From positions 7,315 through 39,314 of the forward strand of contig CAYXLQ010000003.1 of NCBI GenBank assembly GCA_964465775.1: DNA of 32,000 nt, read 5' to 3'. The stretch is from an uncultured Clostridiaceae bacterium (GTDB taxonomy: Bacteria > Bacillota > Clostridia > TANB77 > CAG-465). Below, piece after piece: positions 2,242-9,633 of the stretch. The translations under genes and the position numbers were made by a program. Numbering within the stretch: position 1 is the first letter of the stretch; each line of letters starts with the position of its first letter. The notes under the pieces are model-generated. The model was given only the letters and a program-made list of their open reading frames with translations, ran no database searches and was not told the origin of the DNA.

Positions 2242-3555
2242 TTATCTATAATTTCTTTTACAATTGATAATCCGCAGGCCGGTCCCCCCCATGTCTCTCG
2301 TTCTAGCCTTATCTACCCTGTAGAATCTTTCAAATATTCTGTCCAAATCTTTCTTCGGTATACCTATTCCATTATCAACTACTTTTATATACGCTTTTCC
2401 TGGTATACTACCAATATAAATTATGATTTCTCCTCCATCTTTAGTGTATTTTATACTATTACTAACAATGTTTATAATTACCTGTTCAATAGAATCTTTA
2501 TCTGCATAAATTGGTGGCGGAACCATATTTACAATACATTTAAGCATATGGCTTTTTTGTTCTGCAACAAAACTTAGCTTCTCAACTATTTCTTTTGCTA
2601 AATCATCTAAATTAAATCTAGCTGCATTAAATTTATTCATTTTATAGTCAAACCTAGAAAGTTTTAACAAATCTGCAACTAGCCTATCCATTCTGTTTGC
2701 TTCATTATTTATTACTTTAATAAATCTTTCTTTGTCACTGTCTGATAATCCACCTTCTAAAATAGTTTCTGAATATCCTTTAATAGATGTTAGCGGGGTT
2801 TTTAATTCATGTGATACGTTCGCTACAAATTCTTTTCTCATATCCTCTAATTTTATAGCTTCTGTAATGTTTTTTACTATCATTATTACTCCCATAGGCA
2901 TTAGCTTCTCACTATGATACGGCACAAACACCATGTTAATTTCATTTTCATTAACCTTTATTTGTTGCTCCATTCTTTTATAATTAGGCAAATACATTAT
3001 TTTTTCAAAATTTATTCTAATTCCTATTTTTTTCATTACCTTATCATAGGTATCTTCTTTTTCTGTCAATCCCAGCAACCTTATAGCTGCCTTATTTATA
3101 TGTATAACTTGCTTGTTTACAGAATATGCTACTACTCCGTCTGCCATATGCTCAAGGATAATTTCAGTTTTACTTTCTTGACTATCTAAATAAAAGTTTT
3201 TCTTTGTCATCATTTCTATCATTTCGTTAAAGGTTTCTACAAATTCTTTTATCTCGCTTGTTTTTATTTCTTCAATTAATGCCTTTTTACTAATTTTATT
3301 AACTTTACCTGCAATTAAATTTTGCATTGTTTTTTGCATTCTTTTCATAGGATGTGATACATTCCTTGATATCATTGACGATATAATAAGGCTTCCTAAA
3401 AGCAACACACCAATTGTTAAAACAATTAGTGTGTCAAAAGCAAATTCCGGTTTTCCTGTGTGCCTATATGACACTAAAAACATAGTAATTAATGATGATA
3501 TCAAAACTAGTGATGTTGTTAGCATTACAATGTTCCTCTTCATTGACTTAAACAT
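2242..3555 (-). CDS. Sensor histidine kinase, WalK/PhoR-like (2 TM, HAMP, PAS, HisKA, HATPase_c); 3' end frameshifted, true stop probably at 2157-2159
   Basis: It has two N-terminal TM helices, a PAS-like LEHMADGVVAY segment and the H-box FVANVSHELKTPLTSIKGYSETIL. N and G boxes are present (IVSNSIKYT, VVDNGIGIP, GGTGL). The ORF then ends abnormally as GGTGLRIINCKRNYR*. The next frame reads GLSIVKEIIDKNDGTIDIKSEQGKGTEVIITLPTEKIR*, the canonical kinase C-terminus. Confidence 0.9.
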   Translation of the reverse strand: MFKSMKRNIVMLTTSLVLISSLITMFLVSYRHTGKPEFAFDTLIVLTIGVLLLGSLIISSMISRNVSHPMKRMQKTMQNLIAGKVNKISKKALIEEIKTSEIKEFVETFNEMIEMMTKKNFYLDSQESKTEIILEHMADGVVAYSVNKQVIHINKAAIRLLGLTEKEDTYDKVMKKIGIRINFEKIMYLPNYKRMEQQIKVNENEINMVFVPYHSEKLMPMGVIMIVKNITEAIKLEDMRKEFVANVSHELKTPLTSIKGYSETILEGGLSDSDKERFIKVINNEANRMDRLVADLLKLSRFDYKMNKFNAARFNLDDLAKEIVEKLSFVAEQKSHMLKCIVNMVPPPIYADKDSIEQVIINIVSNSIKYTKDGGEIIIYIGSIPGKAYIKVVDNGIGIPKKDLDRIFERFYRVDKARTRDMGGTGLRIINCKRNYR

Positions 3556-4234: not shown

Positions 4235-4264
4235 ATGACACCTCTTTTATATCAATTTGTATTA

Positions 4265-4273
4265 ATTATATCA
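4265..4273 (-). promoter_or_regulatory. Candidate extended -10 (TGaTATAAT on the minus strand) for the response-regulator/kinase operon
   Basis: The reverse complement of 4265-4273 reads TGATATAAT, about 30 nt upstream of the RBS. The -35 is weak (TAGTCA-like). Confidence 0.4.
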
Positions 4274-4310
4274 TAAAAATATAATTTGACTATACTTTTT
4301 GTATAAAACT

Positions 4311-4377
4311 TGTAATTTATATGTAACAAACTCAATAACTTGTCATAATAACATTATATATGTAACAATAATGTTAC
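4311..4377 (+). promoter_or_regulatory. Two hexamer-N5-hexamer direct-repeat boxes matching the WalR consensus TGTWAH-N5-TGTWAH
   Basis: Box 1 is TGTAAT-ttata-TGTAAC at 4311-4327. Box 2 is TGTAAC-aataa-TGTTAC at 4361-4377. Box 2 is also the core of a perfect 11-bp-stem palindrome (4355-4380). Both lie between the murD stop and the candidate promoter of the WalR/PhoP-like regulator. Confidence 0.4.
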
Positions 4378-4385
4378 ATATATCA

Positions 4386-5750
4386 TCATTTGGTATATGT
4401 TTCAACATATTCCTTAAACTTTTGTCCTCTTTCTTCAAAATTTTTGAAAAAGCCATAACTTGCTGAAGCAGGTGATAATATACAAGTTTTCCCTTTTCGC
4501 GTAACTTCAACTCCTTTTTTTACAGCCCTTTCTAAATCTTCTTCATAATACACATTAAACTTATCATTTTTTTTATTTATCTTTTCATATATTTTTTTTC
4601 CACTATCATACATTAAGATAACTTCCTCAATTTTACCGCTATTTATAAATTCTATAAGGTTATCATAATTAATACCCCTATCCATACCACCTATAAGTAC
4701 AGTCTGTGCATCCTTAACTGAATTTATTGCACTAATAGTAGCTTCAGGCACTGTTGAAATAGAATCATTCACATATTTTACACCTTTATATGTTCCTATG
4801 TTTTCAAGTCTATTATTAAGTCCTTTAAAAGTTTCTATTCCATTTACTATGCTCTCATCATCTATATCAATTAGTTTGCATACTGTTGCTGCAATCATAA
4901 TATTAAACCTATTATGTTTTCCTTCAAGATTTATTTTTTCAACATTGTACTTTAATGATCCTTTTTTGATAACTAAATTATAGTTAATCTCTCCATCTGT
5001 TTCTGTAACATTTACTTCATTATCAAATATATTATTGCTTACTCCTATTAAATTGCAATTAGGATTTCCTTTTACCAATATATCTTTTAAATCATAATTA
5101 TATATTAAATAGTCATTCATGTTACTATTTAAATAAATATTCTGCTTTGCTTTAACATAATCATCATAAGAAGAATAATAATCTAAGTGTTCTTCAAAAA
5201 CGTTTAATAAAACCGCTATATGCGGAGAGACATCAACAGATTGTATTTGGTGAGATGATAACTCATATACATAATAATCCGCATCTGCGTCATCTAAAAT
5301 ATCAAATACAGGTATTCCAATATTCCCGACAAGTTTCGTATCTAATTTAGCTTCATTTAGTATATGGTGTACCAGAGAAGTTGTTGTACTTTTCCCAACT
5401 GTACCTGTAACACCAATAGTCTTATTTTTATAATATTTTAAAAACAATTCTGTTTGAGACGTGATTTTGTGCTTGAAAGCTTCTATATTAATATCTTTTA
5501 GAGGGATTCCCGGAGATTTTATAACTATTTCAGCTTCGCTCATTATATCTAAATAGTTATCTCCTGTATATACTTTTGCCCCTTCCTTCTCTAACACTTC
5601 CTGTTCATATATAGTGTTTTTATCAGCAATTATAACTTCTGAAACTTGTACGTTGTTTTTTATAAATTCATACGTACTTCTTCCCTCTTTTCCAAAACCT
5701 AATATTAGTATTTTTCTTTCTTTTAACTCAGATATTATTCCCTGTTTCAT
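4386..5750 (-). CDS. murD: MurD-type Mur ligase (UDP-N-acetylmuramoyl-L-alanine--glutamate ligase)
   Basis: The N-terminal Rossmann-like segment KILILGFGKEGRSTYEF is typical of MurD. The P-loop is GVTGTVGKSTTTSL. The central and C-terminal Mur ligase domains end in ILSPASASYGFFKNFEERG. Confidence 0.85.
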   Translation of the reverse strand: MKQGIISELKERKILILGFGKEGRSTYEFIKNNVQVSEVIIADKNTIYEQEVLEKEGAKVYTGDNYLDIMSEAEIVIKSPGIPLKDINIEAFKHKITSQTELFLKYYKNKTIGVTGTVGKSTTTSLVHHILNEAKLDTKLVGNIGIPVFDILDDADADYYVYELSSHQIQSVDVSPHIAVLLNVFEEHLDYYSSYDDYVKAKQNIYLNSNMNDYLIYNYDLKDILVKGNPNCNLIGVSNNIFDNEVNVTETDGEINYNLVIKKGSLKYNVEKINLEGKHNRFNIMIAATVCKLIDIDDESIVNGIETFKGLNNRLENIGTYKGVKYVNDSISTVPEATISAINSVKDAQTVLIGGMDRGINYDNLIEFINSGKIEEVILMYDSGKKIYEKINKKNDKFNVYYEEDLERAVKKGVEVTRKGKTCILSPASASYGFFKNFEERGQKFKEYVETYTK

Positions 5751-5752
5751 AT

Positions 5753-7126
5753 TTAACCCCCAATATATTCTTTAATAATTTTAATATACTTTTCAGGTAT
5801 GAATATATCATTATCCCATGATGCATTAGCTTGCTTAATTTCTAAATTTATATCATTTTCTATTTTTCCATAATTCTGTAGTAACAATGGGACTTTTTTG
5901 TCTTTTTTTATGCAATCAGTTATTATCTTTTTAACTGCTAAATTTATTTCTTCTTTTGTCCCTACGCATTCAAATGGTTTATTGTCATCAGGATAAACTA
6001 ATCCATTAAAAAGTTTCCTGTGCTTTTCTTCATTTAACATCTCTGATTTAAATATAATTTTCATCTCTTTATCTGTCAAAAATGCTTTCATCATTATATA
6101 TACGTATAGACATTTAGGACAATTTTCACACCAAACATCTTCTTTTGATCCTACATTACAACTCTTGAACACAGGAAAGAATTCTTTTAACTTAGAAAAA
6201 GAATTTACAATTTGCCATTCACTTAAAGGCCTTAATATACTAAAATATTCCGGTCCATTATTACATATATAGTTTTCTATATATTCCTTAAAATCTTTTT
6301 CAAATTCTATACTTTTAGAATACTGATGATTTATATTTGTACCCTTAACATTTCCTTCATTAGCACTTGATTCATTTGATAAAATTATATATCTCTTATT
6401 TAGCATCACTGCTGTAATATATGATGAGAAAGCTAAAACAGCGGAAAAAGGCGTGTGACCATTTAGAAATCCTTGCGCATTTAGCTCTAAAAGTTTCTTG
6501 TCCAAAAACCTTTTTGCTTCATAAACCCCTGTTTCTTCATATCCAGATACTTTTGCGCTTTCTTTTGTAGCTCCTCTTGCATTCACAATATAACAAACAT
6601 TGTCTTTTTTGAAATCCTTTAATAAATCTAAAGTTACAAGAGAATCTTTTCCTCCGCCTATAGGTATTAGATTTCCTTTTATAACGTTATCCATTATAAC
6701 CTTTTCATACTTATAATTACTTTTCACTTTTATATCCATAAACGTGTCAATATTCATTGCTTCTAACAAATTATTTACGTAAAAAAATTCTCCTAAGCCA
6801 TTTATATATAGTTTTTTCCACCATTTAATTTGTGATTCATCTATATATCCAGCTCTAACTTTAAATACTTTTGGACATACACATTTAAAATAACTTACTG
6901 CTTCTACCATGCCCAAGTTGAATACTAAGTTTTCTATTAATTTTTCATTACCTTCATTAATAGTAAAACCTTGTGGTTTTCTAAATATCCATTTTGGTGT
7001 AAAAACAGTAAGTCCTACTATTTCAAAATTATATATTATTTCTATTTCATTTTCTTTTTCTTTTATTTCAAAGGAGTTATAAATAAATTCACTATATTGG
7101 TTTCTAAGGCTTAAGTATTTTTCCAT
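5753..7126 (-). CDS. PP-loop (SGGxDS-type) ATP-utilising protein, translationally packed between recR and murD; candidate MurL-type glutamate epimerase
   Basis: 457-aa ORF with LIPIGGGKDSLVTLDLL, a PP-loop motif of the adenine nucleotide alpha-hydrolase superfamily, and a Cys cluster (CNVGSKEDVWCENCPKC). Only 2-nt gaps separate it from recR upstream and murD downstream. The function is inferred, not recognised directly. Confidence 0.55.
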   Translation of the reverse strand: MEKYLSLRNQYSEFIYNSFEIKEKENEIEIIYNFEIVGLTVFTPKWIFRKPQGFTINEGNEKLIENLVFNLGMVEAVSYFKCVCPKVFKVRAGYIDESQIKWWKKLYINGLGEFFYVNNLLEAMNIDTFMDIKVKSNYKYEKVIMDNVIKGNLIPIGGGKDSLVTLDLLKDFKKDNVCYIVNARGATKESAKVSGYEETGVYEAKRFLDKKLLELNAQGFLNGHTPFSAVLAFSSYITAVMLNKRYIILSNESSANEGNVKGTNINHQYSKSIEFEKDFKEYIENYICNNGPEYFSILRPLSEWQIVNSFSKLKEFFPVFKSCNVGSKEDVWCENCPKCLYVYIMMKAFLTDKEMKIIFKSEMLNEEKHRKLFNGLVYPDDNKPFECVGTKEEINLAVKKIITDCIKKDKKVPLLLQNYGKIENDINLEIKQANASWDNDIFIPEKYIKIIKEYIGG

Positions 7127-7128
7127 AA

Positions 7129-7722
7129 TTACATTTCCCTTCTACCTTCCAAGGCTTTAATTAAAGTTATCTCGTCAGTATACTCTATATCCCCGCCAAC
7201 TGGTATGCCATGTGCAATCCTTGTAACAATTATTCCTAAAGACTTTAACAATCTTGAAATATACATTGCTGTTGCTTCTCCTTCAATAGTTGGATTAGTT
7301 GCAATTATTACTTCTTTTACCTTTCCATTAGATAACCTTTTAATTAATTCTTTTATTTTAATATCCTCAGCAGATATATTGTTCATTGGAGAAATTGCCC
7401 CGTGTAACACATGATATTTGCCTTTAAATTCATGTGTTTTTTCCATTGCTATAACATCTTTAACATTTTCTACTACACAAATAATTTCCTCATTCCTTTT
7501 TTGATTTGAGCAAATTGAACATGGATCTAAATCTGTAAGGTTATAACAAACAGAGCAAAACTTTACTTTACTCTTTGCTTCAATCAATGTTTCCGCCATA
7601 TTTTTTGCAAGTGTTTCATCTGATTCTAAAACATGGAAGGCTAAACGTACAGCTGTTTTATGTCCTATTCCCGGAAACTTTTCAAATTCTTTTATTAATT
7701 TTTGTATAGTTTCTGAATACAT
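7129..7722 (-). CDS. recR: Recombination protein RecR
   Basis: HhH N-terminus ([15 protein letters not shown]), C4 zinc finger ([16 protein letters not shown]) and a Toprim segment ([10 protein letters not shown]...[12 protein letters not shown]). Confidence 0.95.
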
Positions 7723-7732
7723 CTATTTTCTC

Positions 7733-8062
7733 CTACATTAATCCTGGGATATTAAAGTCTCCTAATCCATCCTGCATCATTGAGTCTGCTTTATTTAATG
7801 CTTCGTTAACTGCAGTAAGTATTAAATCTTGCAACATTTCGATATCATCATCATTCACTACTTCTTTATCAATTATTATTTCCTTTATTTTTTTATCTCC
7901 TGTTGCTTTAACTATAACTGCTCCTCCACCTGCAGATGTTTCAATTTCTTTTGAAGAAACGTCTGCTTGTTTTTTTTGCATTTCTGCTTGCATTTTTTGA
8001 GCTTGCTTCATTAGGTTTTGCATATTCATTCCACCACCTGGGAATCCTCCAAATTTAGCCAT
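7733..8062 (-). CDS. ybaB: Nucleoid-associated protein YbaB/EbfC
   Basis: 109 aa with [20 protein letters not shown]...SAGGGAV.V...G...I..I.ID and a conserved position between dnaX and recR. Confidence 0.93.
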
Positions 8063-8091: not shown

Positions 8092-9633
8092 TTAATTTAT
8101 CTCTGTAAATGTTACTCCATTGTTTATTAAATGTTCTTCAAATCTATTTGTTTCTACTTTTTTAGTAATATCTATATAACTTAAATTAATGGTATAATTT
8201 TCATCTATTTCATTTTTCATTATATCATTTAAGAGTTCAATATTAGTCTCTTTTTTCAAAATTGTATATGCGAAATTGTTTTCTGTTTCAAAAGTAATTA
8301 TATTATTGTTTTCATATGCTTTAACTCCTGATAAGGCAGAGTATAGTTGTAAATTATCTTTTTCTACTACCTTTTCTCTTATTATATCTATTCCTTTGAA
8401 ATTTTGTTTTTGTTTTGGCAATACTTTGTTTTCTTGTTTTGAATTTTCTTCTAATTCAGGTTTTTTTTCTGCTTTAAAAACTTCTCTAACAGTAACCTCT
8501 TCTTCTTTTCTTGGAATATTTATAACTTCTTGAGTTTCTATTTTATCTAGTCTTAATTCTAATAATCTTATTTTTTCTTCTAATTCTGCTTCTCTTTCAT
8601 AAGTCACACTCGTTGTTAATTCAAGAAGCTTAGCTTTTAATAATATATCTCCATTAACAGACTGCCTAATCTCAGAATCTAATTTCGATAATTCTTTTAT
8701 TATATAATTAAGTCTATTAATACCCGTTTCATTAGGTTTCTGTCCTTTGTCTATTATCATATTAATCAATATTGTTGTAAGTTCTGATACAATATATCTT
8801 GAATTTTTACCCTCAGATAATATCTTGTCAACTTTATCTATGATTCCTGTTACATTATATGATATTACTTGATTTAATAATCCTATTAATTTTTCAGTAT
8901 CTGTTTTTCCAACTATTAATTTAACTTTTTCAGATGTTAATACTTTTGTTTCTCCATCTACACATCTTTCTAGTATACTCAGTGCATCTCTAAGGCCTCC
9001 ATCAGATAGGCTTGCTATTTCCTCAAGTGCTTCTTTATCATATTTTATATTTTCATTTTTTAGTACTATTTCTAATCGTTTCACAATATCTTCAATATTA
9101 AACTTTTTGAATTCAAATCTTATACATCTAGAACGTATTGTAGGCAAAAGTTTATGTTCTTCTGTTGTGGCAAGAATAAATATTACATTTTCAGGTGGTT
9201 CCTCTAGAGTTTTTAGTAAAGCATTAAATGCACTAGTAGAAAGCATATGCGCTTCATCTATGATATATATTTTATACTTAAGATTTGTTGTAGCATACAT
9301 CACTTCTTGCCTTATTGCTCTTATATTTTCTACAGAGTTGTTTGAAGCCGCATCCATTTCAACAACATCTGTTGTTTCTCCACTTATTATTGATTTACAT
9401 GATTTACATTCATTGCATGGGTTCCCATTCTTTGGTTCCAAACAATTTACAGCTCTAGAAAAGACCTTAGCTGTAGATGTTTTGCCTGTACCACGGCTTC
9501 CACTAAAGATATATGCATGCGATACTTTATTGTTTATTATTTGCTTTTTTAATATTTCAATTATATGTTCTTGTCCTACAACTTCTTCAAAGTCCATAGG
9601 CCTATATTTCCTATATAATGCAACATATGACAT
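8092..9633 (-). CDS. dnaX: DNA polymerase III subunit tau (gamma/tau), DnaX
   Basis: Walker A is GSRGTGKTSTAK, with a Zn module CNECKSCKSI, Walker B IIDEAHMLS and sensor TIRSRCIRFEF. An in-frame A8 run sits at codons 389-391 (see findings). Confidence 0.93.
   Translation of the reverse strand: MSYVALYRKYRPMDFEEVVGQEHIIEILKKQIINNKVSHAYIFSGSRGTGKTSTAKVFSRAVNCLEPKNGNPCNECKSCKSIISGETTDVVEMDAASNNSVENIRAIRQEVMYATTNLKYKIYIIDEAHMLSTSAFNALLKTLEEPPENVIFILATTEEHKLLPTIRSRCIRFEFKKFNIEDIVKRLEIVLKNENIKYDKEALEEIASLSDGGLRDALSILERCVDGETKVLTSEKVKLIVGKTDTEKLIGLLNQVISYNVTGIIDKVDKILSEGKNSRYIVSELTTILINMIIDKGQKPNETGINRLNYIIKELSKLDSEIRQSVNGDILLKAKLLELTTSVTYEREAELEEKIRLLELRLDKIETQEVINIPRKEEEVTVREVFKAEKKPELEENSKQENKVLPKQKQNFKGIDIIREKVVEKDNLQLYSALSGVKAYENNNIITFETENNFAYTILKKETNIELLNDIMKNEIDENYTINLSYIDITKKVETNRFEEHLINNGVTFTEIN

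Follow-up and report, generated by a model that had tools for sequence, protein, structure and literature searches.

A predicted MurD2/MurL route to D-glutamate in the peptidoglycan of an uncultured Clostridiaceae bacterium

Introduction

How does a bacterium with no recognizable glutamate racemase gene place D-glutamate (D-Glu) at position 2 of the peptidoglycan stem peptide? The question is raised by a pair of genes from an uncultured Clostridiaceae bacterium (GTDB lineage Bacillota; Clostridia; TANB77; CAG-465), located in a stretch of 32,000 nucleotides that is referred to here as the window (GenBank assembly GCA_964465775.1, contig CAYXLQ010000003.1, positions 7,315 to 39,314 of the forward strand). 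At window positions 4386–7126, a gene for a 457-residue protein is followed on the minus strand by a homologue of murD. A first-pass annotation of the window had proposed that the 457-residue protein is MurL, an epimerase that acts together with a MurD ligating L-glutamate (L-Glu) and thereby replaces glutamate racemase. The analysis described here indicates that the pair very probably constitutes a functional MurD2/MurL route, and all of the in silico checks suggested in that annotation had favourable outcomes.

The racemase MurI together with canonical MurD supplies D-Glu for position 2 of the stem peptide, the same end that is served by MurD2/MurL; MurI racemises free glutamate without ATP, whereas inversion by the MurD2/MurL pair is predicted to follow ligation and to consume ATP. 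The MurD2/MurL route has been described before (Feng et al., 2017; reviewed in PMC8788868 and PMC5808125). Reviews list as its hosts Xanthomonadales, a few Alphaproteobacteria, and Micromonosporaceae, describe it as confined to a fairly small number of genera, and mention low-similarity MurL orthologues in a fungus, cyanobacteria, and an amoeba; they describe MurL as dependent on ATP and Mg2+, as releasing AMP, and as an enzyme that 'lacks known conserved domains' (PMC8788868; PMC5808125). A full-text literature search returned no report of MurL in Firmicutes or of a PP-loop fold for MurL.

Identification of MurL

The two genes, and the motifs and residues considered in their identification, are as follows (window coordinates).

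5753–7126, minus strand: murL, the 457-residue open reading frame (NCBIfam MurL match, similarity to Xanthomonas sacchari MurL, AlphaFold2 model, Foldseek)
6641–6661, minus strand: PP-loop-like nucleotide-binding motif IGGGKDS, MurL residues 156–162 (conservation, identity with X. sacchari MurL)
6110–6160, minus strand: MurL Cys cluster C323-x9-C333-x2-C336-x2-C339 (CNVGSKEDVWCENCPKC, residues 323–339), a likely metal site
5960–5980, minus strand: MurL motif KPFECVG, residues 383–389, with invariant Cys387 as a candidate catalytic residue
4386–5750, minus strand: murD2, encoding a 454-residue MurD homologue (TIGR01087 at 342 bits, Glu187/Arg358, tree)
5190–5192, minus strand: codon for MurD2 Glu187, at the position of Escherichia coli D182 and Xanthomonas oryzae MurD2 E197
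4677–4679, minus strand: codon for MurD2 Arg358, at the position of E. coli K348 and X. oryzae MurD2 R358

An NCBIfam scan of the 457-residue protein gave a single match, to the MurL model NF041275 (MurL_Xanthomonadales; E-value 1.9e-66, 224 bits, model positions 9–395 of 447), and no hidden Markov model (HMM) of an alternative PP-loop family matched. A Xanthomonas pair was obtained by tblastn of a plasmid collection, which led to the 508-kb X. sacchari replicon NZ_CP010410.1; there a PGAP-annotated murL (UDP-N-acetyl-alpha-D-muramoyl-L-alanyl-L-glutamate epimerase) is directly followed by an overlapping murD. BLASTP aligned the window protein with this X. sacchari MurL at 31% identity over 329 residues (E-value 3e-50). 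These matches bear out the identification as MurL. The accompanying description of the protein as belonging to no classical family holds for a local Pfam scan, which found only a sub-threshold match to DUF6395, but it does not hold more widely, given the NCBIfam match and the precomputed PF26298 and PF26299 domains borne by the homologues. NCBI names the Clostridial MurL homologues 'hypothetical protein', and a sequence search of the PDB with the window protein found nothing.

The window and X. sacchari proteins have in common the blocks GLGEF-Y, IGGGKDSLV, NGH-P, SNE-SA, NHQ-SK, LRPLSE, SCN...WC--CPKC, and KPFECVG, which are invariant or nearly so in an alignment of 54 Clostridial homologues. 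Within these, residues G157 to S162 of the nucleotide-binding loop and all four Cys of the cluster are invariant and I156 is variable; X. sacchari MurL has the entire IGGGKDS motif and all four Cys. KPFECVG is likewise invariant in the 54 homologues and recurs in X. sacchari MurL and in a Pseudonocardia homologue.

Compared with the characterised system, the window protein is of similar length, retains all of the conserved motifs, and is encoded directly upstream of a murD paralogue, as Xanthomonas MurL is; its genome likewise has no gene for MurI or for D-amino-acid transaminase (Dat). It differs in its Bacillota host (Gammaproteobacteria, Alphaproteobacteria, and Actinobacteria are the hosts in reviews) and in the frequent fusion of its relatives to MurD.

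The X. sacchari R1 replicon, which is filed as a plasmid ('plasmid unnamed'), carries murL, murD, and a gene for a bifunctional aspartate kinase/diaminopimelate decarboxylase, and resembles a piece of chromosome or a chromid.

Fold and proposed mechanism

An AlphaFold2 model of MurL built on the homologue alignment was predicted with high scores (pLDDT 91.2, pTM 0.91), and its best Foldseek matches in the PDB are all PP-loop ATP pyrophosphatases: TtuA (E-value 7e-4), QatC (probability 1.00), NAD synthetase, TrmU, and QueC of Bacillus subtilis (3bl5; probability 1.00, TM-score 0.63 normalised to QueC, 217 columns). The PP-loop assignment made at first pass, from IGGGKDS at residues 156–162, thus agrees with the predicted fold, and the Cys cluster noted at the same time proves to consist of the four invariant residues between positions 323 and 339. 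No PP-loop family profile in Pfam or NCBIfam matched the sequence at an E-value of 1 or below. An hhalign comparison of the MurL alignment with E. coli QueC is not significant (E-value 0.052) and shows only a correspondence of Cys motifs, in which the C-x9-C-x2-C-x2-C cluster of MurL pairs with the C-x8-C-x2-C-x2-C zinc site of QueC.

MurL shares with QueC, TtuA, QatC, and NAD synthetase the Rossmann-like fold of its central domain and a glycine-rich xGGxDS loop that follows the first strand, although the first Ser of the PP-loop consensus SGGxDS is Gly in the GGGKDS of MurL. Compared with QueC, MurL has additional N- and C-terminal domains and gives no significant profile match, including to the Pfam QueC and ATP_bind_3 families; its substrate would be a nucleotide-muramyl dipeptide and the predicted outcome is epimerisation, not formation of an amide or nitrile. 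For PP-loop pyrophosphatases and MurL alike, the published chemistry starts with a carboxylate being adenylated, and AMP is released. A PP-loop core of the QueC type, activating a carboxylate in this way, would be consistent with the need for ATP and Mg2+ and the AMP release reported for MurL.

In the proposed pathway, MurD2 would ligate L-Glu, rather than D-Glu, onto UDP-N-acetylmuramoyl-L-alanine (UDP-MurNAc-L-Ala), and MurL would then convert the ligated L-Glu of the cell wall precursor to the D form. The PP-loop domain of MurL is predicted to bind ATP and adenylate the alpha-carboxylate of Glu; adenylation would acidify the C-alpha proton, possibly via an oxazolone-type intermediate, and reprotonation from the opposite face, followed by hydrolysis, would free AMP and the D-product. 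Cys387 of KPFECVG, or an invariant His or Lys, may act as the acid/base, and the four invariant Cys most likely form a structural metal site of the kind found in QueC. Together the two enzymes would stand in for the glutamate racemase missing from the source genome.

Predicted glutamate specificity of the adjacent MurD

The window MurD passes the murD equivalog model TIGR01087 (342 bits) and retains the catalytic residues K115, N138, E157, H183, and K198 (E. coli numbering). Near the glutamate site, X. oryzae MurD2 differs from E. coli MurD at four positions (E197/D182, R358/K348, P433/A414, and F435/L416); the E197D/R358K double mutant of MurD2 is switched from an L-Glu to a D-Glu ligase, while the P433A and F435L mutants keep L-Glu specificity (PMC8788868). 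Residues at E. coli positions 182, 348, 414, and 416 are as follows.

E. coli MurD: Asp, Lys, Ala, Leu
X. sacchari MurD2: Glu, Arg, Pro, Phe
Window MurD, linked to MurL: Glu187, Arg358, Ala430, Tyr432
Unlinked MurD of the source genome (contig C25, 471 residues): Asn193, Lys367, Ala444, Phe446

At both positions that switch specificity, the window MurD thus has the residue of Xanthomonas MurD2, in support of the earlier proposal of an L-Glu-type ligase. The same pair is found in 19 of 21 MurL-linked MurDs of the host order (of the other two, one has Asp/Arg and one comes from an open reading frame truncated ahead of position 348), as well as in 71 of 75 linked MurDs from wider loci; unlinked MurDs of the host family have Asn or Asp together with Lys. 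A maximum-likelihood tree places 44 linked MurDs in one group (SH-aLRT 100), and a branch with SH-aLRT 97 separates the linked MurDs and X. sacchari MurD2 from all unlinked MurDs and E. coli MurD. Mur ligase architecture and catalytic residues are common to the window MurD and Xanthomonas MurD2, as is an aromatic residue at the L416 position, though Tyr in the former and Phe in the latter.

A further position of the E. coli enzyme, K319, is Ile in MurDs of most lineages of the order, linked and unlinked alike, and Lys was found only in the two unlinked MurDs sampled from family f3 (G017 and G034). A K319T substitution in E. coli MurD confers some acceptance of L-Glu (review, PMC8788868).

Glutamate racemase and MurD in the source genome and its relatives

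The source genome (1.14 Mb, 106 contigs, 97% complete) gave no profile match to glutamate racemase (TIGR00067), Asp_Glu_race (PF01177), or class-IV aminotransferase (PF01063). A tblastn search of it with MurI from three relatives reached a best E-value of 1.6, while a MurD control recovered both copies. Neither murI nor a D-amino-acid transaminase gene, the two that the first-pass annotation had singled out for a check, was therefore found. An assembly gap as the reason for the missing murI was considered and rejected: three genomes of the source genus that are 100% complete, and a closed one from a different family, show the same pattern.

Among 151 genomes of the host order, 39 are MurL-positive and 96 are MurI-positive with an overlap of 0, MurI being present in 96 of the 112 MurL-negative relatives; both states occur inside five genera (g2, g4, g6, g20, and g23). 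Five MurL-positive genomes that belong to the class but to other families have no MurI and have MurD beside MurL. Nor is MurI present in five named MurL-positive genomes (two metagenome-assembled genomes (MAGs) labelled R. flavefaciens, the Erysipelotrichales isolate A81, and MAGs labelled Bacteroidetes and Alistipes). MurI thus occurs in 0 of 49 MurL-positive genomes, and none of the 161 genomes compared has the two proteins together. Class-IV aminotransferase (Dat) matches are confined to two MurI-positive genomes among the 151.

The MurL-linked MurD is the only one in many MurL-positive genomes (genus g3, parts of g4, g7, and others), and the closed 1.8-Mb genome G183 encodes its one MurD as a fusion with MurL in a 1019-residue frame. 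Two MurDs are present in 14 of the 39 MurL-positive relatives, and all two-MurD genomes of the order are MurL-positive. The source genome belongs to this type, having a second, canonical-type MurD (Asn/Lys, catalytic residues intact) on contig C25; this second MurD probably accepts free D-Glu, for example scavenged D-Glu, and salvage is the simplest reading of its predicted role. In view of the retained canonical-type MurD, the statement in the first-pass annotation that the stem peptide is built without free D-Glu is too strong.

Linkage and fusion of murL and murD

When species-representative genomes were scanned, at least 593 proved to have a MurL relative; the loci returned are all labelled Bacillota or Bacteroidota, with no proteobacterial MurL among them. 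Of 80 loci fetched for comparison, 75 have a murD after murL on the same strand, the order seen in Xanthomonas, and two of these 75 are fusions. A profile search of 1.84 billion representatives yielded 3224 clusters, 1439 of them at an E-value of 1e-30 or below. About a quarter of the top 150 matches are proteins of 740–1250 residues, and the eight of these that were scanned all contain Mur ligase domains, placed either before or after the MurL part.

Fusions of MurL to a Mur ligase in both orders are seen at L089 (3986–6583), L109 (4004–6520), and G183:C1 (L141, 2475–5534), and in the proteins P0124, P0132, P0148, P0162, P0215, and others. P0162 has an additional C-terminal M20 peptidase domain, and the ligase part of P0215 has PF01225, a catalytic domain characteristic of MurC/MurE-type ligases.

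Outside these arrangements, four genomes of family f4 (G004, G009, G014, and G019; loci L137–L140 and L048–L051) have MurL alone, with no adjacent MurD and no MurI. Their single MurD falls in the unlinked clade; E. coli position 182 is occupied by Asp, position 348 by Lys or Arg, and position 422 by Tyr. In this family, either other substitutions allow the MurDs to accept L-Glu or MurL has another role. MurL-like genes at 25–28% identity also occur on the Pseudonocardia alni plasmid pPaSha1 (L148, 3872–5272) and on two other Pseudonocardia plasmids. These plasmids are mobilizable, and the genes, annotated as hypothetical, encode a GGGRDS loop, the Cys cluster, and KPFECVG and have no adjacent MurD; they may represent a different use of the same enzyme family.

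Alternative explanations

Several observations weigh against a MurD2/MurL route in the source organism. The score of 224 bits against NF041275 lies far under the equivalog cut-off of 700 bits, in a model built on Xanthomonadales alone whose cut-off is reached by no genome of the host order; at such a score, orthology to MurL has to be argued from context and motifs. In the MurD tree, X. sacchari MurD2 is on a long branch and the canonical outgroup is a single sequence, and the Pro that Xanthomonas MurD2 has at the A414 position is Ala430 in the window MurD. Some members of the family, in f4 and on the Pseudonocardia plasmids, are unlinked to MurD, and the plasmid genes indicate that the wider MurL family is not uniformly MurD-coupled. 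The window MurD, unlike Xanthomonas MurD2, coexists with the canonical-type enzyme encoded on C25, which is hard to account for if the cell has no free D-Glu. Neither MurI nor MurL was found in 16 of the 151 relatives, which could scavenge D-Glu or use an undescribed route to it; several of the 16 are 98–100% complete (e.g., G029, G080, G124, G147, and G149). Within the source genus itself, the 100%-complete genome G138 has neither murL-murD2 nor MurI and a single, canonical-type MurD. At its corresponding locus (L145, 1501–2927; compare window 4235–7128) recR is directly followed by a WalR-like response regulator gene, and this junction, together with conserved promoter-proximal intergenic DNA, indicates that the pair is cleanly absent. 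The pair is thus dispensable in the genus, or another source of D-Glu exists.

The products of QueC and NAD synthetase, both of which use ammonia, are amides or nitriles made by way of adenylates. With such enzymes as fold relatives, the MurL homologue might adenylate the stem-peptide Glu for some other change, such as amidation of the alpha-carboxylate to iso-glutamine, leaving canonical MurD to ligate scavenged D-Glu. Retention of a canonical-type MurD in the source genome is compatible with this explanation, as is the ability of G138 to live without the pair and without MurI, but it is unlikely. The absence of MurI from all 49 MurL-positive genomes is expected of an enzyme that supplies D-Glu and not of one that amidates it; many genomes, one of them closed, have only a MurL-linked or MurL-fused MurD; and the linked MurD bears the Glu/Arg signature for L-Glu. 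Moreover, the protein is homologous to MurL, whose representatives from Xanthomonas, Micromonospora, and Salinispora are demonstrated epimerases (PMC8788868).

Also quite improbable is a reading of the pair as a remnant, redundant or in decay, with canonical MurD and gut-derived D-Glu forming the working route. G138 lost the pair, or never had it, at exactly the same site and manages with canonical MurD only, and two MurDs are present in more than a third of MurL-positive relatives. Yet both open reading frames are intact, with all family-invariant residues and catalytic MurD residues present and gaps of only 2 nt, three other species of the genus hold the pair at the same site, and neither a D-Glu source nor a dedicated importer was identified. 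Least credible is a chance adjacency of murD to an unrelated PP-loop enzyme of the QueC or tRNA-thiolation type. The structural matches to QueC, TtuA, and TrmU and the lack of a local Pfam match are what such an enzyme would give; however, the linkage across diverse Bacillota and the many MurL-MurD fusions already contradict it, and MurL is the sole family match, with no HMM for QueC, TtuA, or another PP-loop enzyme matching. A working MurD2/MurL pair accordingly remains the preferred reading of the locus.

Host range and significance

The window pair belongs to a known system whose host range is much wider than published and includes a phylum unlisted in the reviews: the pathway genes are present in a quarter of one gut Clostridia order and in more than 590 species-level gut or rumen Bacillota genomes. 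The wide spread may take in Ruminococcus flavefaciens-type, Lachnospiraceae, Oscillospiraceae, and Erysipelotrichales genomes. A more general proposal, put forward tentatively, is that MurD2/MurL is a major and repeatedly adopted replacement for the racemase in gut and rumen Bacillota, used by hundreds of species and frequently in the form of one bifunctional fusion protein; in genomes such as the source it would operate beside a canonical MurD using scavenged D-Glu, and the roughly 10% of related genomes with neither MurI nor MurL may hide a third source of D-Glu. If a MurD for scavenged D-Glu does work beside MurD2/MurL, residue 2 of the stem peptide would have two separate entries.

The route would account for how murI-less anaerobes can build peptidoglycan that contains D-Glu, and its recognition would correct thousands of 'hypothetical' and 'D-glutamate ligase' gene annotations. 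The MurL route has been promoted as a narrow-spectrum drug target against Xanthomonas and Stenotrophomonas (PMC8788868); its occurrence in gut and rumen Bacillota alters the spectrum to be expected of inhibitors. The PP-loop/QueC-like fold with a Cys4 site gives a structural frame to an enzyme that reviews describe as without known domains, and the natural MurL-MurD fusions should be handy for structural and mechanistic work.

Genomic neighbourhood

Upstream of the pair are three further genes.

8092–9633, minus strand: dnaX (window gene list)
7733–8062, minus strand: ybaB (window gene list)
7129–7722, minus strand: recR, upstream neighbour of murL, given for context only

The five genes dnaX, ybaB, recR, murL, and murD2 lie in a row on the same strand. 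The coordinates confirm the spacing reported at first pass, with 2 nt between recR and murL (7127–7128) and 2 nt between murL and murD2 (5751–5752), and purine-rich stretches resembling ribosome-binding sites lie within the 3' end of each preceding gene. murL and murD2 are probably translationally coupled, closing the dnaX-ybaB-recR string. A functional tie between murL and recR was considered and rejected, as recR precedes murL in only the two closest of the 80 compared loci; this linkage is lineage-specific, being restricted to the source genus and its nearest neighbour, and is uninformative on function. Promoter and terminator scans of the AT-rich window DNA were uninformative (50 promoter-like sites against 48 expected, and zero terminators). 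The histidine kinase open reading frame downstream of the response regulator gene (window 2242–3555, minus strand; 2065–2577) encodes a C-terminus of '...GLRIINCKRNYR', which looks truncated against a normal HATPase C-terminus.

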